Positions 10,301 through 55,362 are shown, numbered from the stretch's first letter. The stretch is DNA of 64,000 nt from Amphiscolops sp. MND2022 (GCA_964187785.1 OZ076409.1:12154001-12218000); one strand, 5' to 3'. The notes: generated by a model from the sequence alone, not told the origin. Program-made: numbers and translations.

Positions 10301-11029
10301 ATGGCACCCGAAAAAGGCACCCAACGTAATGTCGAATGTTCCAATAACTGCGGAATATGGTCCTCCGTATGGATGCCAGATAGCAAAACTGAAGAAATTG
10401 AAAATAAAGGCTTCATCTATGGATTTTGCAACTTCTCCAAAATCAAAGAACTAGATCAAATAATGTCAAATCTTAAACAACTACAACTGGATATAACAGA
10501 CATTACAAAGGATATGAAACAGAACGAAACTTCCGTTACAAGAATAAAAACCCTGGAAGAGAGGGATCTCTCCAAGTTCGAAGCCAACAGTGCAACCCTT
10601 CTAGCAAATGTTGAAACTGAAAAGAAAAAGCAGAAAGACAAGGAATCTAATGTGGTAATGCTTGGTTTGAAAAAACTATCCAAACACGAAGCGGAAGAAA
10701 AAGTGAAAGATATCCTATCATATCTTGACATAGAGACTGATCCGGTGAAGATAGAACCCATCGGAACAGTAAACAAGCAGGACAAGCAGCTCCTACTCGT
10801 AAAATTCCCTAACCCAAACACGAAGTGGAAAGTAATTCGATCACCTAAAAAATTACGAGGAGATACGAGATATGATGGCATCTATATTAATCCAGACTTA
10901 ACACCTGAACAGCGTAAATTAGAATTTGAACCTCGAAATAAACTTCGTGAAATACGAATTTCCAACCCCTGCAAAGGGTATCACATAAAATCGGGACAGA
11001 TTGTGGAAATCCCACAACAACAAGGATGA
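10301..11029 (+). CDS. LINE ORF1 protein (coiled coil + RRM-like C-terminal region)
   Basis: 242 aa. NVVMLGL...LLVKF...IYINPDLTPEQR motif typical of CR1/L2-group ORF1; lies immediately upstream of the endonuclease. Confidence 0.75.
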   Translation: MAPEKGTQRNVECSNNCGIWSSVWMPDSKTEEIENKGFIYGFCNFSKIKELDQIMSNLKQLQLDITDITKDMKQNETSVTRIKTLEERDLSKFEANSATLLANVETEKKKQKDKESNVVMLGLKKLSKHEAEEKVKDILSYLDIETDPVKIEPIGTVNKQDKQLLLVKFPNPNTKWKVIRSPKKLRGDTRYDGIYINPDLTPEQRKLEFEPRNKLREIRISNPCKGYHIKSGQIVEIPQQQG

Positions 11030-11050
11030 CTAAAACCCCCAATTAATACT

Positions 11051-13540
11051 TTGACACCAAAAACTTTTAGACTGCTCTCTTGGAATATAGAAGGTGTCAA
11101 AAACAAACTCAGTTATTGCGAAACATACAATTCATATGACATCATACTGCTTGTGGAAACACTGTCAACAGAACAACTGCAACTGAAGGATTATATCACA
11201 GTGGATGTACCTGCTAGAAAACATAAGAGAGGTAGACCGACCGGTGACATAATACTTGCCATAAGTCATTCTATAAGTGAAAGGTATACTGTGATATACA
11301 AATCTCAGCAAATTATTGCTGTTGTTTTTAGACGACGTAGAATTGCAATTATTGGGTCATACTTCCAACCAAACTTCGAAATTGAAGACTTGATTGGGGA
11401 ACTTGCCGATGCATTGAGTAAGGCCAATCCAGACTATCACATCATACTACTTGGAAATTACAACTGTAGATTAGATATACCGAATGAGAAGCAAGAAACT
11501 CTTCTCAGCTTTCTCCAAGATAACAGCTTCACTTGCCGGAATAACCCTGAAGTCATGACTTATATATCACATAATGAGAGGAGTACTATTGACTTGCTTT
11601 TTACTATTATTCCTAAACTATTAAAATAGTTCGTAATTATAGACAGCCCCCTCTCAAAACACTCTCAAATTACAGCTACCATTAGTGTGACTCTAATGAG
11701 AAGAAGTAAATTATCTCCAAGAATTCGAAAATGTGATCCTATACGGCTTTACAACAACGTGGAAGAGATGAGAAAACAAGCTTGGGAATACACATTTGAA
11801 AATACAAACGAGGAGGCGTTATTGCTGGCTAGCGGAATTAAAGGATGTATCAATAGAGCAGCTATCCCCGCTTCAAAAAGGAAATCTAAAGCATGGTTCA
11901 CTAACAAACATTATGAATTACATCACAATGTCAAAATAGCCTACAAACGGTATAGAGAAAACCCAATAAAAACAAACGCAAAAGTGTTGGTGGATGCCAA
12001 AAAAGATTCTAAAAAAGAATGTAGAATGGCTAAGAACTCTCAGAATGAGAAAAGAGAAAAACTATTATTTGGGTAGCCGAGAAAAATAGATCTCAGTTTT
12101 GAAAGATTCTCACAGCCAGAAAGCCGCCCCAGATGATCACCTGTCAGACAACGCAGACAGAACTGGAAATACATTTTAAAGCAATCTACTTTCTTCGAAA
12201 CATACCTACTTGGACATTGAACTCAATTAAAATGACGGATCACGTTTACGAACTTACTAGAAACGAAGATTTCAACATCATATTGGATGCAGAAATAAAC
12301 CTTACAGAGATTATAATGGCTTTCCAATCATTGAAAAGGAGAAAAGCTATAGGAATTGACAGGATCTCTGGAGAAGCACTGAAAGACAACTTTGAAATAC
12401 TCCAGCACTGTTTTTTGTACACTTTCAACAGGATATTCGAATCTGCAGTATGCCCAACAGAATGGAAGACTGCAATAGTCAACTTTTATATAAAGGTAAA
12501 GGCCCCAGAAATGACCCGGATAACTATAGTGGGATATCATATCTACCCGCGATGTACAAAGGATACTATAAAATCCTGTATGCAAGACTAGTGCAATGGT
12601 TAAATGCATATGACATTTTACCAGAATCACAGCATGGCTTCAGGAGCGGACATTCTACTATAACAGCTATATCTACCCTGATGAAGGATGTCGACAAAGC
12701 TCTGGACGAGTCCATGCCATACTATATTTGTTTTGTTGACTTTAGAAAAGCTTTCGATTCTATCAATAGACGTATACTCGTTACAAAATTGCATACTCTG
12801 GGTATTTCAGGTCATTTCCTTAATGTACTTTTCCAACGTGTTGTCAATAATTTTGTATACATACGTATCGACCAGTACCTTACAGACCAACTGCCCCAAA
12901 ATATTGGTGTTCCTCAGGGAGACAGATTGGCACCTTTACTTTTCACAGTTTTCATAGCCGACCTTGACAAAATTTTTGAGGAAAACAGGAGTTACAGTCG
13001 TCTTTTATGCAGATGATTTAGCCATTGGACATACCGATTTGTCAAAACTACAACGAGCACTGTTAACGCTAGGGAAATATTGTGAGAAGAATGATCTGGA
13101 AGTCAATACTGAAAAAACCAAAGTAATGAAAATGCGAAAAGCAGGAAGATTATGTCTTTATGATCTGCTAACTTACAAAAACACAGCACTGGAATTCGTG
13201 AATACCTTCAATTATATGGGAGCTGTATTGCAAACAAATGCGAATCCAACATCCAACTAAACATCTGAAACATCTAAGAAGAAAAGCTCTCATTGGAACA
13301 AAAACTCTGTCAGTGAAAATAGATTTAGCAAAAGTGCAATTAAGCACTGCTATGACACTATTTGAATCCATAATACTCCCTTCGGCAACTTATTCTCTGG
13401 AAGTATACAGAGGAAAAATCACAGAATCAATCAGACAACGGCATATCAAAATCTTACATAGTATATTCTACAAGAGATGGGCTGGAGTCCCAAGAAGACT
13501 ACCGACTGAACAACTGATGAACAGAATGCTCGAAGGTGAC
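11051..13540 (+). pseudogene. LINE ORF2 (APE endonuclease + RT), several stops/frameshifts, N-terminal part
   Basis: LLSWNIEG, LLVET, LGNYNCR, STIDLLF (APE); KAIGIDRI, QHGFR, FVDFRKAFDS, GVPQGD, FYADD (RT), spread over several frames. Confidence 0.9.
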
Positions 13541-15170
13541 TGTCGCAGCCTCATGGGTTCTCTGGACCTGTTCTGCAAGAGTAAAAAGGAAAACAAAGAA
13601 GCAGCCTGAAAGACAAACTCAATTTGATGAAACTCAATAAACTGCCTTCCCCCCTTTTATTTCTTTGCTTTTATTGTCTCGTTGTTTACCCTAACCAACG
13701 AATTAAGTCATGTAAATATTTATTTTATAGTTTCTTTGGTTGAATTGTGGAAGCCAGATGCGAATTAAGACATGTTGACTAAGTTTTCTTAACTTTTCAC
13801 CCTAGTTATTACTTGAAATATTGAGTTGTTTAGTTGAATTTAGGCCATAATCTCTGAATGGAACAATGATTAATCTAAACGTGACTTTTCAAATCAATGA
13901 GTATGCGTCACAGTACGAAAATGTGAAAATGAATACACTTCATCATGCTGTTTGTAATTAATAATTATGCACCATCATACGGAAAATTTCTAACGCATAT
14001 ACTGCAATATGCGGATTTTAACCACCGCTTATGCGGCACCATGCGGAAAACAGTAATTTCCTTCATACATTGTCACAGTGATATTTACACGTCACTATGC
14101 GGAAAATCGCCGGCGCTTATGCGTCAATATGCGGTTTTCCGCGTTTTTCATCATACGGTGTTATATCATTATTGCATTGTGATTATTCGTTGATATGCGG
14201 AAATTTAAGATCGTATATACGTCATTATGCAGTTTTCCAGGGTTTTTGCTGTAGCTGTACAATACTTGTTTCTGCTTGTCATGCAATGTATATTTAGAGT
14301 TATAAATAGAATTACGACACATGATGTAATCCTTTTTATAGAATATGAAGACCATGACACCCATAAAAACGGGTGTAATCCCCACCATTTTTTCCTTGTG
14401 CTCAGGACCTTAGACCCCAATCATTCTTTGAAATAACTCTCGCTGAAAACAGTTGATAAAACCCACACTCCAAACCGTTGTAAAAGCAGTTTCTCATAAT
14501 CAACAGTTGTCTCATTTTTCCAATTTGTTTTGTTGAAAATCTCAGCTGAATTCAAATTCTTCCCCAGCAAATCCAACACATTTTCACTTGAGAACAATGG
14601 GAAATAAGGGAAACAGAAGATCTAGAAGGCATGAAACACCTTCACCTGAGCGAGAATTGAGTGAAACACAATTAGAAACGCCAATGCAAGGTAATGAAAC
14701 TTTAACTAATGTTAGTACTGTTATTCAGGAACCTTTAGGTGAAAACGAGAACAGATCTAGTCTAATAGAACCTAGTCAAATCAGTAACGAAATCCAAGTT
14801 TGGACAGAGAACTTTGAACAAAAGAACAATGACAGGATAATGAAAATGAGAGAAGAGATGGAGAACAAATTTGATGCAATTTTGAAAGAAATAAGAACAA
14901 GCAAAACAACATCAACAATAACAAATCCCAGACCTGAAATTAATGGAATGCAAAACTCTCAACCTTCGGGATCCAAAAGTATTAGGTCTAATGGAGTTCA
15001 CGCATCAAACATAGAAAACTCAGATACTGAAAATGAGGATGATCATCCCCTCAGAGCCTCTGACATGAGAGAATTAAGGAATCCTGCTAGACCACTTTGT
15101 CAAAATGAACCGAACTTAGACGAAACGATAATATCAGAAAGAGACTCCGAGGAGGAGGAGGATTATCACA
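13541..15170 (+). repeat. 5' LTR of Gypsy B (1630 bp)
   Basis: TGTCGCAGCC...GATTATCACA; near-identical to 28262-29889 (about 15 substitutions and 2 small indels counted by eye). Confidence 0.97.
13903..14232 (+). repeat. 32-bp-phased array of 16-bp motif ATRCGKYANYATRCGG in the 5' LTR
   Basis: Motif starts at 13903, 13935, 13967, 13999, 14031; 14087, 14119; 14185, 14217. Confidence 0.85.
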
Positions 15171-16291
15171 TGGTGACAGGAGCCAACAGACAACTCCATA
15201 GACAAAGCTCCCAAAATCCTCAGTCTTTAAATGATACAGTTGGATCCTACGCAGATCAAACAACGTCACCATTGACAAACAAACCCCTTGACCCAGTTAA
15301 TCAAATTGCACAAGCAATCGAGAAACTGGCAAATAAAAACTCACAACAATCACTTTTTCACCCGAAAAACACATTGACATTCAATGGAAAAAACGAGAAA
15401 AACGAGAAATTCGAGTACTTTGAAGACCTGTTTCATACAACCCTTCGCATGCAGCCAAATCTAACAGAGGAAATGAAAATTAACCACTTTCATGCACACC
15501 TCAGAGGTTTGGCATTAAAAACATTCAAAAACATACAAAGAACGCCATCTACCACACTGGAAGACATTCTAAAAGTCTTTCGCAGAAAATACGTGAAACC
15601 AGAATCCAGTGCCTCAGCAAAGCACCGATTCAATAGACTTTTCTTTGACCCCGAAAACCAAAAACTACCAGATTGTCTTGAAGAACTCCAAGAAAGCGCT
15701 GAAAAAGCTTTCGGAGATAACGCACACCAGATGATAGAGAACCTACTCTATGCAAAGATGCCCCCTCACCTTAAAAAATCCATCAACCAAGCCTATCTCG
15801 AGAACGGCACATACGACCAGATCGTTAAACATCTCGAGAGGGAGATGGAGCTAAATGGTTTGGAAGCAGACGAAACCTCGGTCAAGACCCAAATGACCGT
15901 CACCAAAAAAGAACAAAATACTGAAAAACCAACTAAAAAACAAAATGAGAAGTCTAAAGCTCAGACTCCAAAAACAGTACCCAACAAGACACTTAAAAAT
16001 GACCAATGCCGTTACTGCAAGGAGACGGGTCATATGATGGCTGACTGCCCCAAGCTAGCAAAACGGCGTAAACTTGAAGAGGACCCGGATGCAGAAAAAT
16101 GCCAAAACTGCAATACACCAGGTCATGAGGAAGAAAACTGCTACTTCGGCGCCAACATGGATAACCGACCACCGAAGTGGAACCTCACCGAAGCCCAAAA
16201 GAAGGTTATCGAAGCTTACAAACAAGCTAGAAAACCTATAAAACCAAAAATAGAACGACCTCAACAATCCTCTTCCAAGGATTTAAACTAG
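14597..16291 (+). CDS. gag: Gag of Gypsy B; starts inside the 5' LTR
   Basis: ATG at 14597 (MGNKGNRRSRR); capsid-like middle region; two CCHC knuckles CRYCKETGHMMADC and CQNCNTPGHEEENC. Confidence 0.9.
   Translation: MGNKGNRRSRRHETPSPERELSETQLETPMQGNETLTNVSTVIQEPLGENENRSSLIEPSQISNEIQVWTENFEQKNNDRIMKMREEMENKFDAILKEIRTSKTTSTITNPRPEINGMQNSQPSGSKSIRSNGVHASNIENSDTENEDDHPLRASDMRELRNPARPLCQNEPNLDETIISERDSEEEEDYHMVTGANRQLHRQSSQNPQSLNDTVGSYADQTTSPLTNKPLDPVNQIAQAIEKLANKNSQQSLFHPKNTLTFNGKNEKNEKFEYFEDLFHTTLRMQPNLTEEMKINHFHAHLRGLALKTFKNIQRTPSTTLEDILKVFRRKYVKPESSASAKHRFNRLFFDPENQKLPDCLEELQESAEKAFGDNAHQMIENLLYAKMPPHLKKSINQAYLENGTYDQIVKHLEREMELNGLEADETSVKTQMTVTKKEQNTEKPTKKQNEKSKAQTPKTVPNKTLKNDQCRYCKETGHMMADCPKLAKRRKLEEDPDAEKCQNCNTPGHEEENCYFGANMDNRPPKWNLTEAQKKVIEAYKQARKPIKPKIERPQQSSSKDLN
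15171..15185 (+). other. Primer-binding site of Gypsy B (lies within the gag frame)
   Basis: TGGTGACAGG immediately after the LTR-terminal CA; tRNA identity not determined. Confidence 0.7.
16282..16288 (+). other. -1 ribosomal frameshift slippery heptamer (T TTA AAC)
   Basis: X XXY YYZ in the gag frame directly before the gag TAG; the -1 frame is open from 16282 into pol. Confidence 0.8.
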
Positions 16292-19200
16292 AAACGCCAC
16301 GCCTTAACAAACAAAACGCCCAAATAACAACTACAAAACCACAAGACGTCTGGCAGCGTCAAGTGGATACCATAAACATACAACTTAAACAGCTGACTAC
16401 AGAACCAGACTACACACCTCAAACACACAATCACTCCGACAACGATGAACCCCCACAGGAATCATACTATGAACTCATGAAAGATGCTCCTGACAAGTAT
16501 TTTTCAGACAATACTCAAACCTCCCCTGTACCTACAGACAATTCACCAGAAATCCACCACCCGAGTACTTTCTCTTGCAATGAACAAAAACAACCCCTTT
16601 TAGACGAAGATATCACAAACCACATCCAATTTGACCAAGAACGCAACCTGTCATACCTACCTATGTCAACCTCGTTAACATTGAAACGAAAACGCCACAT
16701 GTACTACATGCCAATGGACTTCGAAAAACTCACACTTGATGGACTCATTGACACAGGAGCCCTGACTAGTGCAATCTCCGAACAAGACCTTAACAAAATC
16801 AAATTAATTGCAAATGAAGCAATAAAAGATACTGGCCCACCGCCAAATTTCCAAATTATGGTGGCCAACGGTCAACTAGAGGTACCAACCGGCACAGTAC
16901 TACTTGAATTCGAAGTGGCTGATTTCATGTTACGAGAAAACTTCATCATCATGAAAAACCTACCAAACCCACTCATTGGTCTCTGCTTCCTTCGCAGAAA
17001 CAATGCAGTCTTTGATGTCACACAAGGCATCCTAACTTTTCCATACCTCTCAATGCAATTAAAACCAGACACACAAGTAACAATGCGTCAAGCAACACCA
17101 TTGTTTGCTGAAAATACATACACCCTTCAACCAGGCGAAACCCTCGCCATAGCAAGCAGAATGCCCCACCTGTTAGACCACGATGCAACAGGAATAGTCA
17201 CACCCTCACCACAATTCGAAAGCCACGACAGCATTTTCATCACATCGTCACTTAGTACGGTCAACAATAATGCTATCGGGTACCAAATAATCAACTTTTC
17301 AGAACTCCCATATACAATAGTTTATGACACCCATTTAGCAGACTTCAAAATCCTCACACCAGAACAAATCAAACATATACAACCTGTAGATCCAGCGATG
17401 TTGTCATTCATGATACAACATGAAGAAACAACCGAGATCTACATAATTGAACTACTGAAAGTTCCTTCACAAAACCCCGAACAAGAATCTTACTGGTTCC
17501 CAACACCAGAAGAACCAGGGGATCCTACAACGTATACCCCAATCCAACAACGAATATACAATGAACTCCTTGAGCTCAAAGAACTTGAACAACTCAACCC
17601 ACAAGACGATGCAAAATCAAGAAAAGCTTTCCTCTCGAATTTCGACTGGACTGACACAACGCTCAGCCAAGAAGAGCAGAAACAAATTGAAGAAATCCTC
17701 ATTGAATTTCACGATATTTTTGCCAGACACCGATTCGACATTGGCACCAATCGTGAATTCAAGGTTAAACTCACACCAAAAGATGATCGACCAGCCTACA
17801 GCCAAAGTTTGCCAACACCAATCAACCTCAAAGATGACATTACCGTAGAACTAGCACTTCTACACAAATATGGAATCATAACAACCCTACCTTTTTCAAA
17901 ATACGCTAGTCCAATTTTTGCACAACGCAAACCAAATGGACGCCTCAGACTACTTGTGGATCTCAGAAAAATCAACAATTTAATCACCGAAGACTACATC
18001 AACAATAACCACCCGGTAAGCACACTGTCGGATGCAGCACAACACATGGCAGGCAAGAAACTTTTCTGCAAATTAGACTGCTCCCAAGCTTACCACTGCC
18101 TTCAAATGGCAGACTACCAATCCATTCAGATGCTTGCTTTCAACTTTGCAAGCCGAACCTTTGCTTATCGCCGACTCGCTCAAGGCCTTAGCAGATCTCT
18201 CTCGGCTTTTTCTAGCTTCATGAGGGAGTACCTTGACAAGGCGATCAAAGCTGACCAATGTGCACAGTATGTCGATGACATTGGTATAGCAGCAAATGAC
18301 TTAAAACAGTTATGCGCCAACATCAGGACGGTCTTTGAATGTATCCGAAATGCTGGTCTAAAACTCACAATGTCCAAATGCCATTTCGGTGTCAAACAAG
18401 TAGATTTTCTAGGCCGCACAATCACACCTGTTGGCGTGGCCCCTCAAGCCGACAAAGTCAAAGATTTTTTGTCGAAATTGAGATTCCCCAAATCCAAAAA
18501 AGCACTCCAAAGGTACATAGGATTCCTAAACTATTACCGCAATTACATCCCGAGACTTTCTGAACGATTATCGCCGTTCTTCAAACTCCTCAAAGAAACC
18601 TCCAAATTCTATGTACCCACGAACTTGGTGGAAGACTTCTCCAACCTAAACAAACTTCTCGAAAACTCTTGCCAATTAGCCTTGAGACAACCTCTCAAAG
18701 ACAAACAACTCATAGTCATGTCTGATGCAAGCTTTACAGCAGCAGGATATGCTATCATGATAGAAGACGATCCCAGCCAAAAACTCCAGTCCAAACGCAA
18801 AACATATGCACCCATAGCATTTGGTTCGAAAACCTTCAACCCAACACAAACAAAATTGTCGATCTATGCGAAAGAATTCCTTTCCATATACTTTGCTTTT
18901 GTTGAATTTGGACACCTCATGTGGGGAAGCACTTTTCCAGTCATAGTGTTCACCGACAATAGATCTGTAACACGCTTTTTTCAAGCAAAACTCATTCCTC
19001 CAGCACTTTGGAACGCATGCGATTATGTCCTACAATACAATTTTGTCATTGCCCATGTTGCTGGTTCAATGAATACGGCGGCGGATTTCCTATCCAGAAC
19101 GGAAGTCAACCCAGTTGAAAAACTTGAAATGAGCATAAGAAACGATATCCAAACCAAAGCGATAAAAGTCAATATACAATCTTCTGGTATTGTGGAAGAA

Positions 19201-21160
19201 GAACAAATCTACATCCTTCCCGATGATGAATTTGACGAAAACAAACTTTGGGAAGAAAAGCAAAACGTGAGAAATCAAGCTCAAACTGAGACTCACAATG
19301 ACCCAGAAAACAATGTCACTGAACTTCAACAATTTCACAAACCGACATCAGGCTTAAACACATGCTCTGAAGGACATTTCCGAGACAATGCCAGAATTAG
19401 ACTCGAACAAAACAATGACATTGTCCTTAGGAACCTCAGAGCTAAAATAGAAGGAAACCCCTTTGATGAAAACGACTTGGCATCTGATTACAGATATCAG
19501 CATTACCTCCAAAACATAACCAGAATCGAAATCAAGCAAGAGGTTCTAACGAGAAGGTACTACACCGACACAGGAACCACCTCGCACTATCAGATTTTGT
19601 TACCAACACAACTCCTAGAAGAACTACTTCAAGCATTACACGGTCATAACTCAAACCATCCGGGTATCACAAAGATGATACAAGAAGTACGGCAGAAATA
19701 CTACTACCCTTGTATTGCAAAATACATTAAAAATGGGTGAGTAACTGCCAAACCTGCATACAAACCAAAAGGATCAATAATGACCTCCTCAGGACCGAAC
19801 TACTTAATTGCCCAGAATGGGATCTCGGCCCTGAAGACATTCTTCAAATGGACATTCTACCAAATCTACCACCCAGTGGTGGATATGACAGTATAATAAC
19901 AGCGATAGATGTTTTCTCTCGATACATGTTTGCATACCCAGTGACCCGCATCACTGCAACATCAGTAGCCAGAGTGATAATGGACATATTATGCAAACAT
20001 ACATACCTTCCAACAACAATCATCACAGACCTTGGCACACAATTCAATGCTCAAGTAACCAATGAAGTTACAGCTGTCCTTGGTGTTGAGCTAAAACATG
20101 CAACAATGAAACATGCTCAAACAATAGGACTTCTGGAAAGAACACATGCTTCAGTCAAAACCCAACTCAAAGCAGCAACTGGAGAATTTCGACATAATTG
20201 GCATAAATTTCTCCCGTTAGCAGTACTAAACCACAACACAACCTATCATGCATCGCTTGGTTGCGAGCCTTCACGAGTTTTCCATGGCCGCATCCCGCAC
20301 AACATACTGGATTACAAGTTAGGATACAATCCTAATCCGAAATATCAACCCCAAACTGACGTTGCAGAAGAAATACAACGACGAATGAGAATACTTTTAG
20401 ACCAGACCAAAAAGAACATAATGCAATCCTATCTCAAATACAAAGCCTATTATGATAGGAAAGCAAAAGCATCACCGTTAGAAACAACGGACTACTGCTA
20501 TATTTTAAACCCGAAAGCTGACACACAAGCAACAAAAATACCATTTCGGGAATTCAGATGGCAGGGTCCTTACAAAGTCGAAAAAGTCCTTCCTAATAAC
20601 AATTATATAGTTAGGAGACTGGGAACAAATAAAACACAACTTTTACATAGAATCAGGTTGAGAAAATTCACACCGCAAGCACCGTTAGCCGATATTTTCG
20701 TACGAGAATCTGATTGGCAAAAAGATGATCAAATGCCAGTGGCACATGATGACTTATATGCCCAATCATGGAACACCAATTTTGGGCCTAACCCATTTGA
20801 GGATAGCCCTCCAAATTATACACAAATTACTGATGACATTGAATATGTACCAGTTGAAGTACCTGAAAATAACCACCCTCCCACCCACGAATTTCCAAAA
20901 AATAGTGGGGGGAGCCCAGTGGAACAGACCACTGAACGCGAAGAAGAAAATTGTGATGAAAATCTACAAGAAATCCAAGATGAAAAATCAGAAATCTCCC
21001 AAAAAACCCCAAAAGAAAATACACCAGAAACGCAAACCCAAAAAACCCCAGAAAATTCCGAAAATACTCCATTGCAAGAAGAACCCATAAATACTCGTGG
21101 TGAAAAATACAATTTACGACCTAATCCCAACCCATTTACTCCGACTCCTACAGATACTAA
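16282..21160 (+). CDS. pol: Pol of Gypsy B (protease, RT, RNase H, integrase); 1-nt frameshift at ~19730; true end approximate
   Basis: LIDTGA protease, YVDD, MSDAS..ADFLSR, H..H..(frameshift)..CQTC, QMD/ITD/LER core, WQGPYKV. One A is missing in the AAAAA run at 19729-19733. Confidence 0.93.
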
Positions 21161-21353
21161 AAACACAGAGACTGACAACAATTTCTTTCCTTCCAGTCTA
21201 TCTTTTTCTCTGTTTGAAACTGTCTTCATTCTGCACTATATCCATCATAAACAATAATACCGATGGATTAATGAATACAATAACACAGAATTTTAAAGAA
21301 ATACATAAAAACAAAAATCGAAGTTTACAATCAGAAGTTTACACAATAGTGAA

Positions 21354-24300
21354 TCAATTCTTCTTGTTCTTTGTCGCCGTATCCTTTGCTTTTGGAGCAT
21401 CAGGCCCAACATTAACACAGCGTGGCAAAGAAATAGTAGCCTTTCCCAAAGACGAACGAGGGGATGGTGAGTTGCTGCTGGTGCCAGTGTCACTCCCGCA
21501 AGTAAGATCAACGTCGTCGGGAAGACACAGTTTAGGAGGGGCGATAACAACCTTCTTATATGAAGTCTCGAACGAATTCTGCAATGTTGCTCTCCTAGCA
21601 TTGCTACCTTTTAGAAAATTCCAGACCGAGAACTTACGGTCGTGAAGTAAATCCTTTCCCCTGCCCAACAATCGGAAAACACGGGAAATTGATCGTGGGT
21701 CCCGATACAAACTCGACACATTGGGTACAGTTGTAAATGATATCTGTACACCTGCCACACATGAACGAAAAACATCTGCATCAGCCCCCAATTCCGGAAT
21801 AGGAATCACGAAAGGGACAGGAACTTTAACCAACGGGGGTAAACATAAACTGGCATATTTGAATACCTGGTACAATTCAGGACGACACTGCATTTCGTAG
21901 TGCGAAACTAAAAACTGGAACCAGTCTTCAGGCTGAGGGACCTCGCAAGCTCTAAGCTTCGTGACAAATGAGCGATACTGACTGATGGTCTTAGTTTTCT
22001 CACTTGAAGTTAACCAACCAACACTCACAAAATGACCGGTAAGGCTTTCCACTGCAGCGACATATTGATCTTCTGTTCCGTACAAAATAACAGCAGAATC
22101 AAAGCATGCTAGTCCACGAACCAAACTGGATTTGTTGATCTCATGCGACAGAAGAAACGCACAGAATGATTTACAGAAGGATATAGTCTGCTCAACGAAC
22201 TTGCCCGGGCGTGGAAGCTTGCTGGTGGTAACAAGGCGATGATAGTCTTCGTTGAGAACGAATTGGTCGGCAGTTTTAAAGGGCAAATCAGTCCGGTTCA
22301 GATCGAGGCTTAGATACCGCTCCCATTCGGAAATATTGCCGAGGACACTATCAGGCAAGATACTCTGGAGTTGGCTGTATACAAAGACAGCATACTGGTT
22401 GTATAGCCTAAATCCAGCACCGAATTGATCGCGAATCTCTGAGAATGCGGAATCATCTGAAACATGAAAGATATTAAATGAGATAACACCAAATGTTGAG
22501 TATTAGACTGACAAAGCGTCAACATACAGTTTTGAAATGACGCCTATGCGTTACAATACAGCTATTAATAGACAATTATACACCACTGTGCGGTTTTGAA
22601 AAAACGCATATGCATCATCATGCGGTTTTCAGCCGACCACCATACGTTACCATACGTTTTTTAACGGACGACTATACGGTATCATGCGGTTTTCAGCCAG
22701 TGACTATGCGTCACTATACGGAATTCAATCAGTGTTCATATGCCATTGCGCGCATTATAGCTGACGTAAGAACAAGCTACGATGATCTAGCTGGTGAATA
22801 TGCATTACTATGCGGAATGTTATAAACGAGCATTCGCCACCATGCGAATGGTGAGTTTTGATTATGCGGTACCATACGGAAATTGTAGTATCGTATATAC
22901 GGCATCCTACAGAATTTGAAGATCAGCCACAAAGCGATGAAAGAAAGGGATGGACATGATTATGATTTTATCCAAAGTACATAAATGATTGTGGCAACGA
23001 AAAAGGTGTACGAAACGTGGCATGATTCAAAAGGAATCCTTCGTTGATTAGAGTTAGCAAATATACGGCGAATGAAGTTACGGAAAATAATTAAACAACT
23101 TTTGGACAAAATACCATATGAAAAGTCGAGAAATTGTGTGAAATTTATACTAACAGTGATCAAGAACACAGCGGATAATGAACAATCTGGCCAAATACGC
23201 CGTATCAAGGCGGAAGCACTCGTCAAGGGTGTTGGGCTATAATGATAAGAGAGAAAATAAAGACAGAACGGGAAAAAACCGAAATGATACTTCAGAAGGA
23301 AACAATACAAACCTCTCTCATGTGAAACCTGTAAGAAGGAAGTCGAGACACTCGGTTTAGGTGGTCGAGGACTTTATCCCAATGGATAGACAGGGTCTCA
23401 ATCAGAATGGATGCTTCCTTTGGAGAATATGAGAGGTCTATCACACACTGTAAAGCAAGTGGTTTAACACAGGAATTTCTATAACTATATTCATAGTGTG
23501 AACGAAACCTTACTTTGTAAAGGGTTGGAAGTGATTGGAGCCAATCTCTATCTAACGCTGTCCGCAGTTTCATTAAAAGAAAATCCAAGATAGTGCGGTA
23601 ATCGTGTCTCTCAAGGCTTCGAGACGTAGGCAAGGAAAGGCAGCGCTCCAATTCACTAGGGCCAAATCCATTGACAGAGGTGGGCCGTAGGCGACCAGGC
23701 AACGAAGCCTTAAAACAGGAATTAAGTCTTTCAGGACAATCAATAAGGCAAATGCAGGATGGGTGGACATCAAATAAACTCAAGAAGGATGAAACAACTC
23801 CCATCATCTTCTTTGGGACCAAAGTTCCACGTGGACCTGTTCCAAGACAGACTTGGTAGAAGACATTGCCTGCCCAGAAATTCAGAAAAATGTGTGTCTC
23901 GAATTGGTTGTTTTGAAATGATAATGAATATGTCTCGTTGCCAGAAATGGAAGTAACACAATGTTGTAGCAGTTCACGAAACATGAAAACAATGATACCC
24001 TGCAAACAAAAATGTTGTATCAGAGAATGGAATTAGCCCAACTATGAAAGGACAAAAGTATACTCACAAATAAGCGCTCTCGGTTCCAACTGAAAGTTGA
24101 CTCCTGGCTGTTCCCTGGGAAGAGCCGAACCATTTCACTCCACATCCCTGAGAGAGTGTCCACGTTGCCACCATGGCGAAGTCCGTACTCGAGGATAGCG
24201 ATTTGTGAAATGACATCTTCGCTGGGGTTGGAAGTGGTAGAGACGTCAGGGAGTCGATCTTGTCCCACTAGAAGGCGGCACGCATCTAACTGAGGCGCAA

Positions 24301-25834
24301 TCGGGTAGGTCTCTTTGGCTACCCTCTTGGCTTCCTGTAATGCACTTCCGGTGAGGGCTTTCGCAGAGCGGTCGAATAAAGGCACCCCCGGTATCTCTAA
24401 TCTGATGCGGTGTTCTTTGATTAAATGCGAATCAGTTTTGAAATGTGAGAGCAATTCAAGAACTCCTCTACTCATGAGCGATAACTCCACCCTGCATACC
24501 CGGCACCACCACTTATAAGGCGTCTTCTGTCGGTCTATCGGTCCGGTGGCGAAGAATTTCAGAACTGGGTGCTTACGCATCATGTGGGGTTTTAAGGAGT
24601 ATTTAGGCCTACGCCGTTTACCACTTGGGGCTGGCACATCTTCACAACTTGATTGAGTCATGGGCTCGTCCGGATCTCGAGCCGTTGTTTCCCTTACGGG
24701 TCCTTTGTCTGGAGAGACCGGCGGGTCTTCAATCACACTGAATGTAAAATTGTTGGTGGAAGCCGGATCAGGATCGTTCAACACTGTCTGAGGGATTCTT
24801 CCCAAAATACTGGTGATAGCTAGAACCTCTCGTCTGGTAATAACCGTTTTCGGGGGACCATCAGAGCTCGATCCTTGGATTTCATCAGGGACTGGTGTAT
24901 CCCTAAGCGGATTTTCCGGAGTTGACTCACTAAGCGGAATTCCGCACCCGTTCATCTGAGAGGTTCCTGGTGCATGATCTGTCTCCTCCACTCGTTTGAG
25001 AAAAGAAGAAAATCTGGGTGAAGTAGTGTGATAACTGTTCAAAGCTTCAGCAGCTTCAGTGACATCTTGTAAAAAGGGATCATTGACTGCCATTGATGAT
25101 AAATTGGACAACAACGGACTTACGTCACAAGCAGGGTCTTGCGGAGCACCTCCCTTCTCTGTCTCAGTCGTTTCCTGGATGACGAGTACCTTTGGAGATA
25201 AGGATGCGTCTAAATTATCTACAATCATTTGCTCTATCCCGTCATCATTCCGAGTTGTGGGTTGCTCAGGTAGTTCGTCCAATCTAGGAGACTCTACAGT
25301 AGTTTGGGAGGTCAAGACAGGAGTAGTTTCCGAAGTAGATTGAACAGGTTGTGGAGGATTCTCTGATTTAATTGCAGCAACTTCAAGCGGAATATATACT
25401 TTAGTAGGGGATCTAGCCGGCGACTTCTGCGTAGATCCGAAATCAACTGAAACAAATTGATTTAATGTCAATTTGGATAAAATTCGTTGATGAGCGAAAC
25501 TAATCCTACGGAACAACTGAAACCGGACGCGGTGTAAGGAAGTTTCAAAATTGGGCGGAAGTAGCTCAAGATCAAACCGGATGTAGAAATACTCCAAAAG
25601 AAATTTGAAAATTGCTTTTCATCATGAATAAACCAGTTTTCACTGAGTAGCCTGGCCAGCTATTCAAATTAAAATTCGTTTCTGATCAGAAAACTCTCAA
25701 ATCTCAAATCACAAACTAAACAATAAATGGAACGTACCAGGAGAAGTTGAAGTTGGCGATTTGTAGCCCCAATTTGCAAGCTCTTTCCGGAGGGTTTGTT
25801 GTCCTCTTGATTTTCTGCGATTAGGGGAATCCAT
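21354..25834 (-). CDS. Antisense five-exon accessory gene of Gypsy B: predicted 1115-aa BED-finger / hAT-transposase-derived protein. Exons 25834-25738, 25446-24068, 23999-23313, 23236-23155, 22456-21354
   Basis: Four GT-AG introns (donors GTACGT, GTGAGT, GTTTGT, GTTAGT; pyrimidine-rich YAG acceptors), with phases 1,0,0,1 matching at both ends. The 3348-nt spliced frame has no internal stop and links three separate ORF-track ORFs. Confidence 0.8.
22546..22912 (+). repeat. 32-bp-phased array of the same 16-bp motif in intron 4 of the antisense gene
   Basis: Motif starts at 22546, 22578, 22610, 22642, 22674, 22706; then 22800, 22832, 22864, 22897. Confidence 0.88.
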
Positions 25835-27249
25835 TTGCAGCGGAAATGAGGAGTAAAGTGAGCAGATAACAAATTGAATTGAATTTGTGAAGCAGTTTTA
25901 GCAGATGGGAATAAAGATTGGATCAGAATTGGAATTGGAAATGACAATAACTTTGACTGAAACTGATATGAAATACAAAGAAGACTACTAGAATAACCTG
26001 TACTAGAAAATTCAAACAAATTGCAATAACAATTGAAGGCGTGGCGTAAAAACGAAAGGCAAAAGAGTAAATGAATACTGAAATTTGCGCACTAATGCAG
26101 AAAATACTCAAATCTGATTGGTCAGTTAATTACCGTCCATTACTGCCAGAATGGACGAATACGTAATTATCGAACTTAACGACCGGTCAACGATGCGGAC
26201 TTCATGAATGGCCCTCATGCGGCATGGAGAGGAATTTCACCACTGTCTATGCGGCAGTATACGAAAACGACTTTATCAATAATGCGACAGTATGCGGAAA
26301 TTTGTAACCGCATATGCGGCAGAATACTGAAAGCCACCACCACACCTGCCGCAGTATGCGGAAATCCACAACCGCACGTGCGGCAGAATACTGAAAGTTA
26401 CCAATACACATACGGCACTATGCGGAAAATTACAACCGCGTGGGCGGTATAGTACAGCTTGACGACCTAACTATGTCTACATGTTTTAAAGGACATACAC
26501 GACTTAACTTCAACTTCTTACGATGCTGTGATGTTCAGTAGCTAACACTAGCTATTGAATATGCGAGAGTGATGATCTATTAACAGAATACATTTTTATG
26601 CATGCCAATTCAGACAAACCGAAAGAAAATGAAAAATAAACTAGATCTGATGCTCTTCTACCTTTTTGAGATATAACGCACTTTTCAAGTGCGGGACTCG
26701 AAACAAAACTTTGATGAACTACGGATAAATGTGATATTTCACAAAATTTAAATTTTCAGTCTTGAAAAACTTCATTCATAAATATAAACCTCGGTCATGT
26801 AAACCTAGATATGTATATCAATTTTCACTTCATTTCTCCATCAATGGGAGTTATTAGTCATGAAATCCTTTCAAGTTAGTTTAGTTATGATTTTGTTTTT
26901 ATCTCATTAAAATGGTTCAACACTGTCAAGCGTCTTGTGTGAAGATGAGATTCTCCCTGAAAACTGAAGAAACACCTTAAATGGTAGATGTTTATATCAA
27001 ATTAAAAGGAAACTTGATAATTTTCGCGGATTCAACAAGTTCTATCACAGAAAAGACCCTATAAGGAAAACGAAAACCCTGAAATCATGACACTCAGTTT
27101 TTCCGCGGGGTTTTATTATAAGCGAAAGAAACGGAAAAGACAATCACCATATGGTCTTTTGATTCGCCCAAAAGCAGTAACTTCAACTAAAACGAAAACT
27201 ACCTCCAAACCTTACCTGAGGAAATCATCCTACAACATAAGAAGAGAAC
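25835..27249. promoter_or_regulatory. Putative bidirectional internal promoter region of Gypsy B
   Basis: Non-coding interval between divergent ATGs (25834 minus, 27250 plus); contains an ATTGG/CCAAT box near 26117 and the phased array. Inferred from layout only. Confidence 0.45.
26217..26457 (+). repeat. 32-bp-phased array of the same 16-bp motif between the two divergent accessory genes
   Basis: Motif starts at 26217, 26249, 26282, 26314, 26346, 26378, 26410, 26442. Confidence 0.88.
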
Positions 27250-28305
27250 ATGAATAACCTGCAATTTACCCTTGAAGATAGCCCTTTGCTCTCAATTCAA
27301 TCTCCTGGGATTGTAGATATATCAAGCGATTCAGGAGAAGAATTTGTCGTTCATCCGAATGATCTGTCCGACGTAGAGGAAAGGTTCAGGGTTGGTGGAC
27401 CGAGATCGGATATGTTGACGGCATTCGTGGGCGCAACTTCGGCAGCACTTTTCACATCCGGACCAGAAGACCCCTCAATTGTTGAGACAATTGACACTGC
27501 TGGGACACAAATTGAGCGCCAGATGATGGAAATCATCGAAGAGCATCAATTCAGTAGAGGGTCTTCATCAACTTCATTCATTGATACGGAACTGGAAGAC
27601 TCACCCATGTCGCCATGGGAGTCGGCCGAACCTTCGGCACGACCTGTAAACAGCTACGGGAGGCCAGCTGCGGCAATCCTCCCTACACCAAGAAGCAACA
27701 ACCACGAAACGACAGTGGTTAATAGACCCATTCCTACTTACCCGCCTAATTTTGCAAACACTTACCCGATTTATCAACCCCAACAAATCACTGATCCTAG
27801 ACATCAAGCAGATCGCCCTCTCAATGGTATCCAACCAAGGACATTGGGTAACAGTGGGGCCTTCTCCGCTAACCCTAATGGTTTGCCTATATATAGTAAT
27901 GCACCAATAATGATCCAGATACCTCCCCATGAAGAAAGTGCCCATGTTTCACAATTGATTACTGGGCCTAATGCTGGACCCTCTCCTCACTTTCCGTTCC
28001 AAGCGGGACATAGCACAAACCTACTACTCTTGCCCTTTCAAGAAAGACTGCAATATTGACTTCTGCCCCCCGTGATGCCAAACGTCGCTGGATTTTGCGA
28101 TTGGTGTGGTAAATGCTATGATTTGATAGCATTGGAGACGCTGGGAGAGTACCTTATTGCAACCGCTTATGACGGGGAGACGGTCAGGGACAGAGGTGTC
28201 AGATCCCGTGCCTTTATAGATGGGTTCGAGGCTGCACTGTTCTCCTTTAAAGGTGCGGGACTGTCGCAGCCTCATGGGTGCTCTGGGCCTGTTCTGCAAG
28301 AGTAA
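27250..28305 (+). CDS. Accessory ORF3 of Gypsy B, unknown function; one in-frame TGA at 28057-28059; ends inside the 3' LTR
   Basis: ORFs 27250-28059 and 28072-28305 are the same frame separated by a single TGA. S/P-rich N-terminus; C-terminal GFCDWCGKC motif. Confidence 0.6.
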
Positions 28306-29889
28306 AAAAGGAAAACAAAGAAGCAGCCTGAAAGACAAACTCAATTTGATGAAACTCAATAAACTGCCTTCCCCCCTTTTATTTCTTTGCTTTTATTGTC
28401 TCGTTGTTTACCCTAACCAACGAATTAAGTCATGTAAATATTTATTTTATAGTTTCTTTGGTTGAATTGTGGAAGCCAGATGCGAATTAAGACATGTTGA
28501 CTAAGTTTTCTTAACTTTTCACCCTAGTTATTACTTGAAATATTGAGTTGTTTAGTTGAATTTAGGCCATAATCTCTGAATGGAACAATGATTAATCTAA
28601 ACGTGACTTTTCAAATCAATGAGTATGCGTCACAGTACGAAAATGTGAAAATGAATACACTTCATCATGCTGTTTGTAATTAATAATTATGCACCATCAT
28701 ACGGAAAATTTCTAACGCATATACTGCAATATGCGGATTTTAACCACCGCTTATGCGGCACCATGCGGAAAACAGTAATTTCCTTCATACATTGTCACAG
28801 TGATATTTACACGTCACTATGCGGAAAATCGCCGGCGCTTATGCGTCAATATGCGGTTTTCCGCGTTTTTCATCATACGGTGTTATATCATTATTGCATT
28901 GTGATTATTCGTTGATATGCGGAAATTTAAGACCGTATATACGTCATTATGCAGTTTTCCAGGGTTTTTGCTGTAGCTGTACAATACTTGTTTCTGCTTG
29001 TCATGCAATGTATATTTAGAGTTATAAATAGAATTACGACACATAATGTAATCGTTTTCATAGAATATGAAGACCATGACACCCATAAAAACGGGTGTAA
29101 TCCCCACCATTTTTTCCTTGTGCTCAGGACCTTAGACCCCAATCATTCTTTGAAATAACTCTCGCTGAAAACAGTTGATAAAACCCACACTCCAAACCGT
29201 TGTAAAAGCAGTTTCTCATAATCAACAGTTGTCTCATTTTTCCAATTTGTTTTGTTGAAAATCTCAGCTGAATTCAATTTCTTCCCCAGCAAACCCAACA
29301 CATTTTCACTTGAGAACAATGGGAAATAAGAGAAACAGAAGATCTAGAAGGCATGAAACACCTTCACCTGAGCGAGAATTGAGTGAAACACAAGTAGAAA
29401 CGCCAATGCAAGGTAATGAAACTTTGACTAATGTTAGTACTGTTATTCAGGAACCTTTAGGTGAAAACGAGAACAGATCTAGTCTGATAGAACCTAGTCA
29501 AATCAGTAACGAAATCCAAGTTTGGACAGAGAACTTTGAACAAAAGAACAAGGACAGGATAATGAAAATGAGAGAAGAGATGGAGAACAAATTTGACGCA
29601 ATTTTGAAAGAAATAAGAACAAGCAAAACAACATCAACAATAACAAATCCCAGATCTGAAATTAATGGAATGCAAAACTCTCAACCTTCGGGATCCAAAA
29701 GTATTAGGTCTAATGGAGTTCACGCATCAAACATAGAAAACTCAGATACTGAAAATGAGGATGATCATCCCCTCAGAGCCTCTGACATGAGAGAATTAAG
29801 GAATCCTGCTAGACCACTTTGTCAAAATGAACCGAACTTAGACGAAACCATAATATCAGAAAGAGACTCCGAGGAGGAGGATTATCACA
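28262..29889 (+). repeat. 3' LTR of Gypsy B (1628 bp), including a copy of the phased array (~28625-28954)
   Basis: Direct repeat of 13541-15170, followed by TSD GTGAC. Confidence 0.97.
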
Positions 29890-30077
29890 GTGACGACCTC
29901 GGAATATCTCATTCATACAGAACTAGCAGAAGAGAAATTGCTACCTTCTATAGTAATGGATGTCATCATTTGTTATGTCACATTGTGGGATGCTACGCGG
30001 TTACAGATTTGCCCTACCCTTGTAAATGTATACTTTGTGGTACAGAGATCATCAATTTGTGGTACAGAGATTCATAA
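29890..30077 (+). pseudogene. C-terminal Cys/His-rich end of LINE ORF2
   Basis: Removing Gypsy B and one TSD copy gives GAA GGT GAC GAC CTC (..MLEGDDLGISH..CHHLLCH..CKCILCG). Confidence 0.8.
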
Positions 30078-31070
30078 AATTTGTGTTTTATGCTGACAAA
30101 GAACATGTTCTAAACAGAATCACAAGAAGGGACCTGAGACTCTACTGTTTTGAAACCATAGAGTAACTTAGATTTAAATTTGTAGACTTTAAAATAAAAA
30201 TTTGTCATGGTTTTTGACGTTTCAATTCAATTCAATTCAATTCAAAAAATACGCGGCTACGTGGCGTTATTGCAAAGCACGATGGTGGTATGTCACCAAC
30301 TTTATTTGAATCATACATAACTATAGCTAAACATCATGAAGTAATCCCTTCTACTACAACACGGGATATGATTGTGATAATAGGGTGAAATACATGCACT
30401 ACTTTTCAATAGGGACGTTGTTGTTAAGGCATATGACGACTAGATATTCTAGTCGTTGATCATTAGAATTTCAATATCATGTAAAAAGTTTTAGTTTGGA
30501 TTTCATCTGGAATTTTGCAATGTGGTGATGTCGACTGTGGCGCTGTTGATTTTTGTAGTCTGACTAGTTTCCGTTGTCTTTTGGTTCTACTTCATTCTGT
30601 GCTGTTGTGTGTTCAACCACGTTGCTTTTTGTTGATTTCCATTTTGGTCAGCTATCACTCTTTAGCGCTGTGTATTTGACGTCATCATTAAATTCCAAAC
30701 ACGCAATCATGCCTCTGACATGACACGAGTATTAGGGTTTTTTGGGAAAATTAGTTATTGGGCATTAGCAAACAGACATTTGGCTGTGGAAACTGTCAGG
30801 CTGATCCATTTTTCTCTCTTGGCTGTGGAGATAATCCGCCTTCGGGTTCTTGTTACTTTTTCTTTTCAAGGGTTCTTTTCAAAAGAGACTCCAACTTTTC
30901 TCGTTTGTAATCATACAAAGCTTTTTATCACTTCAATCAGTAATCAAAAAGTGATAAAAACGCTTTTTTGAGTTTCTGAGCATGTTGGTTGTCAATTTCT
31001 ACATCGTTTTTCCTTCCATCATCAATATATGCTATGATACAACTGCGCAATCAGTCAACTACCGCATGAA

Positions 31071-34968: not shown

Positions 34969-35168
34969 NNNNNNNNNNNNNNNNNNNNNNNNNNNNNNNN
35001 NNNNNNNNNNNNNNNNNNNNNNNNNNNNNNNNNNNNNNNNNNNNNNNNNNNNNNNNNNNNNNNNNNNNNNNNNNNNNNNNNNNNNNNNNNNNNNNNNNNN
35101 NNNNNNNNNNNNNNNNNNNNNNNNNNNNNNNNNNNNNNNNNNNNNNNNNNNNNNNNNNNNNNNNNNNN
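34969..35168. other. Assembly gap (200 N)
   Basis: Run of N. Confidence 1.
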
Positions 35169-35272: not shown

Positions 35273-35486
35273 CTAGGGCCACTCAACCCATAGGGTTATC
35301 TAAGTTCCGGTGTATTCGTAGGCCACTCAGCCTGTCGGTGTATTTGTAGGCCACTCAGCCTGTAGGGTTAGTGTATTTGAAGGCCACTGAGCCTGGGTTA
35401 GTGTATTCGTAGGCCACTTAGCCTGTGTTAGTGTATTCGTAGACCACTTAGCCTGTGTTAGTGTATTCGTAGGCCACTTAGCCTGT
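35273..35486. repeat. Minisatellite, ~30-bp unit GTGTATTCGTAGGCCACTYAGCCTGTGTTA, ~7 copies
   Basis: Seen directly; units are adjacent, with no unique spacers. Confidence 0.85.
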
Positions 35487-37097
35487 TTACGATAGGATCA
35501 ACTACCGGACGCAAAGCAGCAAACCGTTTTTTGGATTACATCTGACTTCTTGTGTTTTAAAAATGGCGCAAACTTCGGCCAAAGTTACTTTTTCGGCAGT
35601 TAGTCATTTAAGTATTCGTAATTTGTCATCTTTCCTTTTTGGGGGCCTGACTAAGTGTTGAGCAAATCAGTTTTCCTTACTTCGGTATTGAGGATTCGTC
35701 AGATGTACATTTTCTCATCACGAGTCGGTCCTGGTTCCACCTCCTTGTCAATCATGACTGGTGGTTTTACTTCGTTTTCAATAAAATTTGAGGGGCGGTG
35801 TTACTGACTCAGTTTTTTCCACTTTTGTAAGCACAACTTAAACTTCGGCTTAATGATTGACATTTGCACTTTTTTTGCCAGGTCTCTTTTTCCCACAAGT
35901 TCCAGACAACTCTCTCCAGCTAAATCTGGCTGAAGGAAATAATACTCTACAATTTACAATGACCTAAAAGGCGAATTTATTTTATATTCTGAAAAGTCGA
36001 TTTTCGTGTTACACATTCTAAGTGCAAAAACTAGGTGTTCCGATCACCGAAGGCTGAAACTAAGCACACTCTTTGGAAGGACATTTAGAGGGCTACAAAA
36101 ACGTTATGATCATTATCTTTCTATTTCAACTCCTTCACGGTGAAAAACGCCCTTGAAATAAGGTAGTCAAAAATCAGGTTTTGACATTTGCAAAACTCTC
36201 AACTTTGGAGGGCTCGTACTCATTCAATTTGAAAGGTACAGCGTGGGGGCTTATATACATCGCTAGCCCAAGCCATTAAAGTATTTTGCACTTTAGATGA
36301 TGTCTCTATCTTTTCTCAACAAAATGTGATAGCACTTTTTCTGAAAGTAGTCATTTTCTCGATGTTTATGTCCGGACTTTCAACTTTGGAGGCCAATATG
36401 TCAAAACCAGGTCCTTTTTCGGAAAAACGCTTCTGCTAAACGCTTTGTGCATGAGTCTTGTGCGTCTACCCTGAAAGTTTTAGCTCGATATCGCCCAAAA
36501 CATGCGGGGGTAGCATTTTGGTAGGTCAACATCCCTACGGCAGAAAGAAATCACAACTTTAAATTCTTAGGGGTTCTTCGCTAGTGCGCCGCAGCACTCT
36601 ATTTATTATTCTATTCACTCCTCCACTTCAATTCTCAAGTACGCTGTGAAGGAGGCGGTTATTGTGCGCTTACACGTTGAGTACTAAGCGATAACTTGCG
36701 AACAACGGCTATTTTGGCCATTTTAGGGCTGTTTTTAACGTTTGCTGGCTCAGTTCTCAAAAACTGCTGAATATTATTTATTTTCCATTTCACACAAGTT
36801 AGAATATTTTATTATCTTTATTTTAAGCCCATTTCCGAACCTTTTCTGACAACTGCGATCACACGAAAATTTTAAAGGAGACTCAGTTAAAGGAAACCGT
36901 GTGCGGCGGCCGTTTTCTTATTAGCTATGCGTACAGCCACTCACAGCGCGTTCTTAATTTCATTCCTTTCGCTTTCTGACACGCTTAGCTGAGGTGCATT
37001 CTATGCTTATCACGCTCACTGTGAGGTTTCACACTTAGCCACTCTTATTTACATTCGTGAACATAGCAGTTTGACTAACTTTCTAATCATCTTAAAA

Positions 37098-55200: not shown

Positions 55201-55275
55201 ACCGGAGACACAGGAGGAGGTGGGAGAGCAGGACGGCGAAGAAAACAACTGAACCATTCAACGGAAAACCAAAAT

Positions 55276-55362
55276 GCCAATCACGGAAGCCCGGATTCAA
55301 CAATTGCTAATGACGGAAGCCCGGATTCAACAACTGCCAATCACGAAAGCCCGGATTCAACA
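55276..55362 (+). repeat. 30-bp tandem repeat x3 near the 3' end of Gypsy C
   Basis: CYAATSACGRAAGCCCGGATTCAACAA repeated three times. Confidence 0.8.

Follow-up and report, generated by a model that had tools for sequence, protein, structure and literature searches.

Phased motif arrays and an antisense zinc-finger gene in a Ty3/Gypsy retrotransposon of Amphiscolops sp.: a candidate self-regulatory system

Introduction

What reads a row of short motifs that recurs about every three helical turns inside a retrotransposon? The question is raised by a stretch of 64,000 nt from Amphiscolops sp. MND2022 (GCA_964187785.1 OZ076409.1:12154001-12218000; hereafter the window, from whose start all coordinates count), which contains a young, complete Ty3/Gypsy long terminal repeat (LTR) retrotransposon with an accessory gene on its antisense strand. 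A sequence-only reading had drawn attention to a 16-bp motif in a presumed intron, said to recur with a strict 32-bp period between diverged spacers, and had proposed cooperative protein binding on one face of the helix rather than a neutral minisatellite. Here we describe that the array is real and constrained and that it belongs to a system of three arrays, for which the element itself encodes a plausible binder, the zinc-finger protein of the antisense gene.

The motif arrays

We found the ten units of the initial array at exactly the claimed starts (22546, 22578, 22610, 22642, 22674, 22706, 22800, 22832, 22864 and 22897) together with an eleventh at 22514, and array 1 thus covers 22514-22912 on the plus strand with 11 units and a period of 32 bp. 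Its autocorrelation has the top lags 32, 64, 96 and 128, followed by 42 and 10, and the maximum lag identity of 0.486 compares with a maximum of 0.358 in 200 dinucleotide shuffles. The period is mostly kept but not strict, because the successive intervals are six times 32 bp, then 94, 32, 32 and 33 bp, with a break at 22738-22799. Each unit consists of an ATRCG-type half-site, YANN and an ATRCGG-type half-site. Two ATRCGG half-sites per unit had been claimed; the type indeed recurs, but only 8 of the 20 half-sites in the ten units are exact and the first one usually has T as its last base. That the spacers have diverged more than the motif was borne out, with a mean pairwise identity among the ten units of 0.68 for columns 1-16 and 0.38 for columns 17-32. 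The spacers still retain some structure: columns 17-20 are A or T in 81-100% over 26 units, and a degenerate inverted half-site often stands directly before the unit, which is a weak signal (best inverted spacer-offset score -0.7 vs -7.7 to -14.9 at offsets -16 to -5). Array 1 also contains a 32-mer in 2.6 tandem copies. As it fills the last predicted intron of the antisense gene (GT-AG, minus strand 23154-22457, with phase 1 on either side), the earlier intron call was right. A CRISPR-like or iteron reading was dismissed, since the arrays belong to a eukaryotic retrotransposon and what separates their units are linkers of fixed length with common features.

Three further arrays, all absent from the sequence-only reading, were identified within the same element, at 13903-14232, 28625-28954 and 26217-26457. 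The one in the 5' LTR (13903-14232, plus strand, nine units) occupies a predicted U3 enhancer position and stops 69 bp short of the TATA-like box at 14301, and the 3' LTR carries the same array at 28625-28954 (plus strand). Array 2 (26217-26457, plus strand, eight units) is located between the divergent antisense gene and a sense open reading frame (ORF). It lies upstream of both, at a distance of about 600 bp from the antisense ORF and of 790 bp from the sense ORF, and is in part the product of a recent 64-bp duplication. All arrays lie in non-coding DNA and have the same 16-mer, orientation and period throughout. Using a scanning matrix trained solely on the ten units of array 1 already known, we obtained 41 plus-strand and three minus-strand matches above 9 bits in the window, none of the latter being a unit. 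All 28 matches of at least 13 bits fall inside the four arrays, and the best match elsewhere reaches 12.6 bits. The same holds for a pattern allowing one mismatch (23 of 23 matches in arrays vs a chance mean of 0.11), although this pattern was drawn from all arrays and is therefore not independent. ATRCGG itself is enriched 65-fold, with 32 occurrences in the 1454 bp of the arrays and 21 in the other 62,346 bp. A second Gypsy element at 49588-55656, in which no such accessory gene was seen, contains no units, which makes a control of one; it has 206-bp LTRs (97% identical) and fragmented ORFs. A lone motif-like match is found at position 198, within a GC-richer stretch (1-5500) holding antisense-looking retroelement remains.

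If the arrays were ordinary decayed tandem duplications, their spacers should be as conserved as the motif. They are far less conserved in all three arrays (counting the LTR array once) as well as between arrays, where the identity is 0.63-0.68 for the motif and 0.34-0.42 for the spacers. With a fixed register and no motif filtering, the LTR array and array 2 gave 0.66 for the motif vs 0.43 for the spacer, and array 1 gave 0.67 vs 0.49. Uniform-rate neutral decay, scored with the best 16-column window allowed, matched the observed contrast of 0.274 in none of 3000 star simulations, and the uniform conservation along the unit that is expected of a neutral decayed minisatellite was not seen. At the CG position of 56 half-sites we counted CG in 40, CA in 9, TG in none and other dinucleotides in 7; such one-sided change is not the pattern expected of neutral CpG decay. 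The ratio of observed to expected CpG is 1.25-1.89 in the arrays and 0.44-0.91 over most of the element outside them, the remaining intron sequence having 1.4, a profile with little sign of heavy methylation. RNA structure as a feature common to the arrays was dismissed, since folding compared with shuffles gave inconsistent z-scores (array 1 +0.43, LTR array -1.79, array 2 -3.18). We read the arrays as reflecting constraint on a double-stranded DNA motif. The contrast between motif and spacers, together with the position of the motif 69 bp upstream of the TATA-like box of the LTR and the presence of a zinc-finger gene in the same element, favours protein binding over a neutral minisatellite, as had been proposed, while cooperative binding on one face of the helix is something that we infer.

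The antisense gene

The antisense gene is encoded on the minus strand and begins with a long first visible exon (24068-25618), the 5' end of which is not defined. Three predicted exons follow at 23514-23999, with the hAT-RNase-H-like region, at 23313-23447 and at 23155-23236, the last of these 82 bp long and placed from splice sites and phase alone, before the last exon at 21354-22456, which encodes an all-helical domain. They are separated by four predicted GT-AG introns of 68, 66, 76 and 698 bp with matching phases, and the 698-bp intron (22457-23154) holds array 1. Splicing of the window copy is a prediction, supported because relatives have donors at the same positions and because the equivalents of the first two exons form a single ORF in distant relatives. 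The first visible exon encodes a low-complexity N-terminal part, which is variable among relatives, a basic KRRRP stretch, a C2H2 finger of the form Cx2Cx16Hx5H (about 24425-24505, minus strand) and a helical domain. The finger ligands and the residues between them are nearly invariant in 57 aligned sequences (56 of the 86 matches plus the window, 48-93% identity).

Clusters of relatives were obtained for three exons (86, 99 and 85 clusters with 33-95% identity, all unnamed), and the sets of 86 and 99 comprise 794 and 782 member sequences. The family thus has about 90 subfamilies. Among 1.84 billion representatives a profile search matched 152, and no significant Pfam family was found in the 39 that were scanned. 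In the distant relatives P0342, P0386 and P0392 the finger and the middle region are encoded within one ORF. These three and P0378 (about 20% identity) share this finger and this middle region and have a Glu that is conserved on the first core strand, and their genomic context could reveal an ancestral, possibly free, transposon. An alignment scan of metagenome and viral contigs with the last exon found no relative. There is partial support for the antisense gene moving together with the LTR element: among the 15 members listed for the cluster of the sense ORF, which has its last codons in the LTR, 3 of the 14 other contigs agree in length with contigs listed for the accessory exons.

Is the antisense protein derived from a hAT transposase? 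A language-model (Atlas) search with P0055 285-695 gave clusters of hAT-transposase type at 0.87-0.93, with top scores of 0.93-0.92. Named matches were DUF4371, the RNase-like regions of FAM200-ZBED5 and ZBED1, DUF659 and Dimer_Tnp_hAT, and one clan is common to all ten of the ten best family matches. Judged by eye, the domain order, in which a finger is followed by a helical domain, a core of three strands and a helical tail, agrees with the hAT pattern. Candidate catalytic positions, also placed by eye, show no conserved D in the close family. The first of them is S or A in 42 of 49 sequences; at the second, 28 of the 49 have G and 14 have D. On the first core strand of the distant relatives E is present in 25 of 32. 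From the language-model search and the motif order hAT ancestry of the protein appears likely, and so does a loss of catalysis. Atlas matches of the last exon to viral polymerases, all below 0.9, were treated as noise.

Proposed mechanism and alternatives

We hold it to be about an even call that the three phased arrays are DNA-binding sites for the element's own antisense zinc-finger protein, probably catalytically dead and hAT-derived, which by analogy would act as a self-regulator like VANC and TnpA. The protein would oligomerise and use its fingers to bind the half-sites, which are 10 bp apart, with two or three fingers to a unit, and with one unit per three helical turns it may step along the DNA as hAT transposases do on their subterminal repeats. 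Its occupancy would keep the accessory promoters and the CpG-rich enhancer of the LTR open and active, which would in turn give positive feedback on the element family. The protein would then be a sequence-specific activator or anti-silencing factor; that it activates and does not repress is a guess made from the plant counterparts. More tentatively, and with somewhat less confidence than in the binding itself, we suggest that an entire lineage of animal Gypsy elements took over a hAT transposase and the motif that it recognises, put an end to its catalysis and employs it as a transcription and anti-silencing factor of its own on helically phased arrays in the LTR, in the protein's own intron and at its own promoter.

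Counterparts have been described. Hermes BED domains bind short subterminal repeats cooperatively and require an adjacent A/T tract and exact phasing, and Tol2 uses a palindrome with a third site 10 bp on, as reported in the text consulted (PMC10368747). Ac is described to bind AAACGG repeats cooperatively (PMC3260210); AAACGG differs from ATACGG by one base. Within its own element VANC is reported to bind tandem motifs that lie in introns and in intergenic and terminal DNA (PMC5735166), and TnpA is described as transposase-derived and as activating cognate copies (bioRxiv 10.64898/2026.08.24.746577).

Several results weigh against the antisense protein as a hAT-derived binder of constrained, phased sites. 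Pfam and PDB-profile searches of the accessory exons gave no hAT match and no named family, and neither did fold searches give a hAT match or a named fold with models of two exons other than that of the RNase-H-like core (mean predicted local distance difference test, pLDDT, of 70). Pfam BED does not match the conserved finger; the BED structure 2ct5 appears at rank 29 with an E value of 6.1, matrin-type fingers score higher, and the finger model aligns best to U1/matrin-type fingers. Given hAT-type Atlas matches on one side and no confirmation by Pfam, PDB or fold on the other, hAT ancestry is therefore likely, not demonstrated. The tree simulations, which matched the motif-spacer contrast in 1, 0 and 0 of 2000 runs each (1/6000), had a mean identity below that of the data, and both they and the star simulations were modelled without conversion. 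The spacing is kept in that 20 of 25 intervals are exactly 32 bp, a count biased by choosing units in register, and the others are 33, 33, 56, 66 and 94 bp, of which 56 and 66 break the phase. The test for conserved length hinges on the assumed indel rate, with P of 0.22 at 0.03, 0.012 at 0.05 and 1e-8 at 0.12, the last rate being taken from the 2 indels and 16 substitutions between the LTRs. The phase of the units is thus probably, but not certainly, constrained. Finally, CpG in the flanking DNA is at 0.96, that is, not depleted, so DNA methylation may not be the silencing that is counteracted, if any is.

The arrays could also be enhancer sites to which the element recruits a transcription factor of the host, be it Runx-like, GCM-like or a BED-finger protein, while the antisense gene does something else. 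Multimerised host-factor sites are usual in the U3 of LTRs, as is generally known, the placement of the LTR array before the TATA-like box fits, and the Runx-type motif TGYGGT has four occurrences in array 1 and one in the LTR array. Yet TGYGGT makes up a minority of the half-sites and is incompatible with the frequent ATACGG, A standing there in 11 of 26 second half-sites, and the GCM-type motif ATRCGGG does not occur in the three arrays. A host factor would also leave both the conservation of the element-borne finger and the near-absence of the motif from the other 62 kb unexplained. We regard it as unlikely, albeit worth keeping in mind. We attach clearly less weight to the motif acting in the genomic RNA, where the matrin-like finger of the antisense protein or the sense accessory protein would bind it in order to export or package the unspliced transcript in a Rev-like manner. 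Cer1 CERV is reportedly an earlier case of an export factor borne by an LTR element (PMC10309623), the finger model is closest to U1/matrin-type fingers, array 2 folds better than shuffles (z -3.18) and every unit is in sense orientation (41 plus vs 3 minus matches, no minus unit). Duplication and template switching, however, would be expected to give a common orientation too, the 10- and 32-bp spacings correspond to turns of B-DNA, no Rfam match was found, and array 1 folds no better than shuffles (z +0.43) and the LTR array little better (z -1.79).

Just as improbable in our view is a neutral hypervariable minisatellite spread among the LTR and internal regions by slippage or template switching, as in the plant Retand and Ogre elements, whose arrays are specific to each family. 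Such arrays are described as common in pol-3'LTR regions and as having no known function in the text consulted (PMC11963269), and the recent 64-bp duplication in array 2, the 2.6-copy 32-mer in array 1 and the spacing test, not significant at a low indel rate (P 0.22), would agree with it. The contrast of 0.274 in 0/3000 and 1/6000 neutral simulations speaks against this, and so do the one-sided CG conservation and the fact that the same columns are kept in three arrays whose spacers are near background similarity. We give the least credence to the gene and the arrays being what is left of a hAT-like DNA transposon that was nested in the Gypsy element or engulfed by it, with the arrays as subterminal repeats for residual transposase or chromatin-looping activity and not for transcription. 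The protein is hAT-like by the Atlas search, its distant relatives retain an acidic residue on the first core strand (E, 25/32), and CGG-core repeats resemble the subterminal repeats of Ac as described in part in PMC3260210. But one array lies in the intron of the gene and one in the LTR, and the close family has S or A (42/49) at the first acidic position and mostly G (28/49) or D (14/49) at the second. A nested hAT transposon was also rejected on structural grounds, as no terminal inverted repeats with an 8-bp duplication were found around the gene (best 6/12 complementary).

The carrier element and its surroundings

The carrier is a full-length Ty3/Gypsy LTR retrotransposon of 16.3 kb (13541-29889, plus strand), flanked by the target-site duplication GTGAC at 13536-13540 and 29890-29894. 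It shows the structure of this group, with two TG...CA LTRs, a target-site duplication within the 4-6 bp range and a primer-binding site, and the gene order gag followed by protease, reverse transcriptase, RNase H and integrase (PR-RT-RNase H-integrase). The 5' LTR (13541-15170, 1630 bp, plus strand, with the TATA-like box) and the 3' LTR (28262-29889, 1628 bp, plus strand) are about 99% identical and differ by 2 indels and 16 substitutions. None of the 16 substitutions falls in a 628-bp stretch (13583-14210) covering almost the whole LTR array (post hoc P about 4e-4), for which conversion, assembly collapse or constraint are candidate causes. Directly 3' of the 5' LTR a primer-binding-site-like sequence begins with TGG (15171-15183, plus strand), and no transfer RNA gene as its partner is found anywhere in the window; a weak purine-rich tract (28249-28261) lies directly upstream of the 3' LTR. 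The gag gene (14597-16291, plus strand) has a CCHC knuckle and a weak Ty3 capsid match, and its product is a singleton in the protein collection. Its ATG at 14597 falls within the 5' LTR, so that about 190 first gag codons are inside the LTR (14597-15170, 3' counterpart 29319-29889) and the 3' LTR bears a truncated gag ORF running into the flank. In pol (16231-21257, plus strand) the window copy has a frame change near 19731-19740, and the pol and integrase ORFs, tried with several ATG starts, gave no exact match in the protein collection. A scan of 13000-31000 against Rfam gave no matches.

The region between pol and the 3' LTR (21258-28261, 7.0 kb) contains the antisense gene and the sense accessory ORF (27250-28305, plus strand). 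The latter ends inside the 3' LTR and has a stop at 28057-28059 in the window copy, and is open over 340-352 aa in four other copies that we read. Its product is acidic and Ser/Pro/Gln-rich with a small Cys-containing C-terminal domain, belongs to a 47-member cluster and has no Pfam match; it could be a cofactor or an activator.

The element interrupts a decayed long interspersed nuclear element, pieces of the endonuclease and reverse transcriptase of which lie at 10301-13535 and from 29895. Elsewhere in the window there are a Tc1/mariner transposase ORF of 344 aa (38960-39994), an ORF with a weak JmjC match (36993-38090), a 200-base N gap (34969-35168) and two 30-bp tandem arrays (35310-35486 and 55275-55363).

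Scanning with the doubled motif gave no viral match and three metagenome matches, L001, L002 and L003, which were rejected as relatives because neither blastn nor tblastn revealed homology to the window. L001 (60-200) has iteron-like repeats in an ORF resembling a phage replication initiator and is an unrelated chance match. L002 (1660-1910) and L003 (60-265) are AT-rich, with ATGCGG or ATACGG every 10-12 bp and CCGCATCGATGCGG-type palindromes and no 32-bp unit; these are possibly subterminal repeats of other DNA transposons.

Comparison with known systems

The closest parallels are VANDAL elements with VANC and Spm with TnpA, which are described to combine an element-encoded accessory protein with arrays of a short motif in the introns, intergenic and terminal non-coding DNA of the same element (PMC5735166; bioRxiv 10.64898/2026.08.24.746577). 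The Amphiscolops element likewise has motif arrays in non-coding regions of the element that encodes the candidate factor. In the same sources, as far as consulted, the carriers are plant Mutator-like or CACTA DNA transposons for which binding and demethylation have been demonstrated, whereas our carrier is a Gypsy element and our system is known from sequence alone. It further differs in that the protein looks hAT-derived, that the sites are phased at 10 and 32 bp and that the finger is conserved across subfamilies and not diversified. On the best reading the element would thus work like VANC/TnpA without being a member of that group.

Among Gypsy elements, the plant Retand lineage (Grande, RIRE2, Tat) is similar in having a lengthy pol-3'LTR interval (2.9-6.6 kb vs 7.0 kb here), antisense ORFs predicted to be DNA-binding and tandem arrays, and in the part consulted it is reported solely from flowering plants (PMC11963269). 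Unlike in Retand, the antisense gene described here is predicted to be spliced and has a C2H2 finger, and the motif of the internal arrays is found again in the LTR, pointing to a candidate target. TRP28 (PF04195), the domain of the Retand antisense ORFs, is not listed in our Pfam scans. Transposases of the hAT group (Ac with AAACGG; Hermes and Tol2 with AAGT) are described with an N-terminal finger, a helical domain, an RNase-H-like core, here a predicted one, and a helical C-terminal part, and with short subterminal sites that are palindromic or spaced by 10 bp beside A/T tracts, the CGG core being that of Ac (PMC3260210, PMC10368747). Unlike them, our system has no terminal inverted repeats or 8-bp duplication, no evident catalytic acids in the close family and no Pfam or PDB match, and its sites are in the LTR and the interior of a retrotransposon. 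Burro, a giant Gypsy element of planarians, is also an oversized animal Gypsy with extra coding capacity; its extras are polyprotein domains (env, BIR, MATH and others), and the consulted part of its description mentions no antisense transposase-derived gene or phased motif arrays (PMC6431247). Our literature search, which excluded most subscription journals and the repeat databases, found no description of a Gypsy-borne hAT-derived gene with phased LTR arrays.

Conclusion

What antisense accessory genes and tandem arrays do for long LTR retrotransposons is stated to be unknown in the text consulted (PMC11963269). In the element analysed here both occur together with a candidate link between them, a conserved finger and one motif at the enhancer position of the LTR, which makes this long-open question directly testable. 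If the proposed binding is true, element-encoded, sequence-specific self-activation would extend from plant DNA transposons to a retrotransposon, a module would have been transferred from class II to class I elements, and the enzyme of a DNA transposon would have been domesticated by a retrotransposon and not by its host. It could also help to explain the sustained activity of this family, with its approximately 90 subfamilies and roughly 800 sampled copies.
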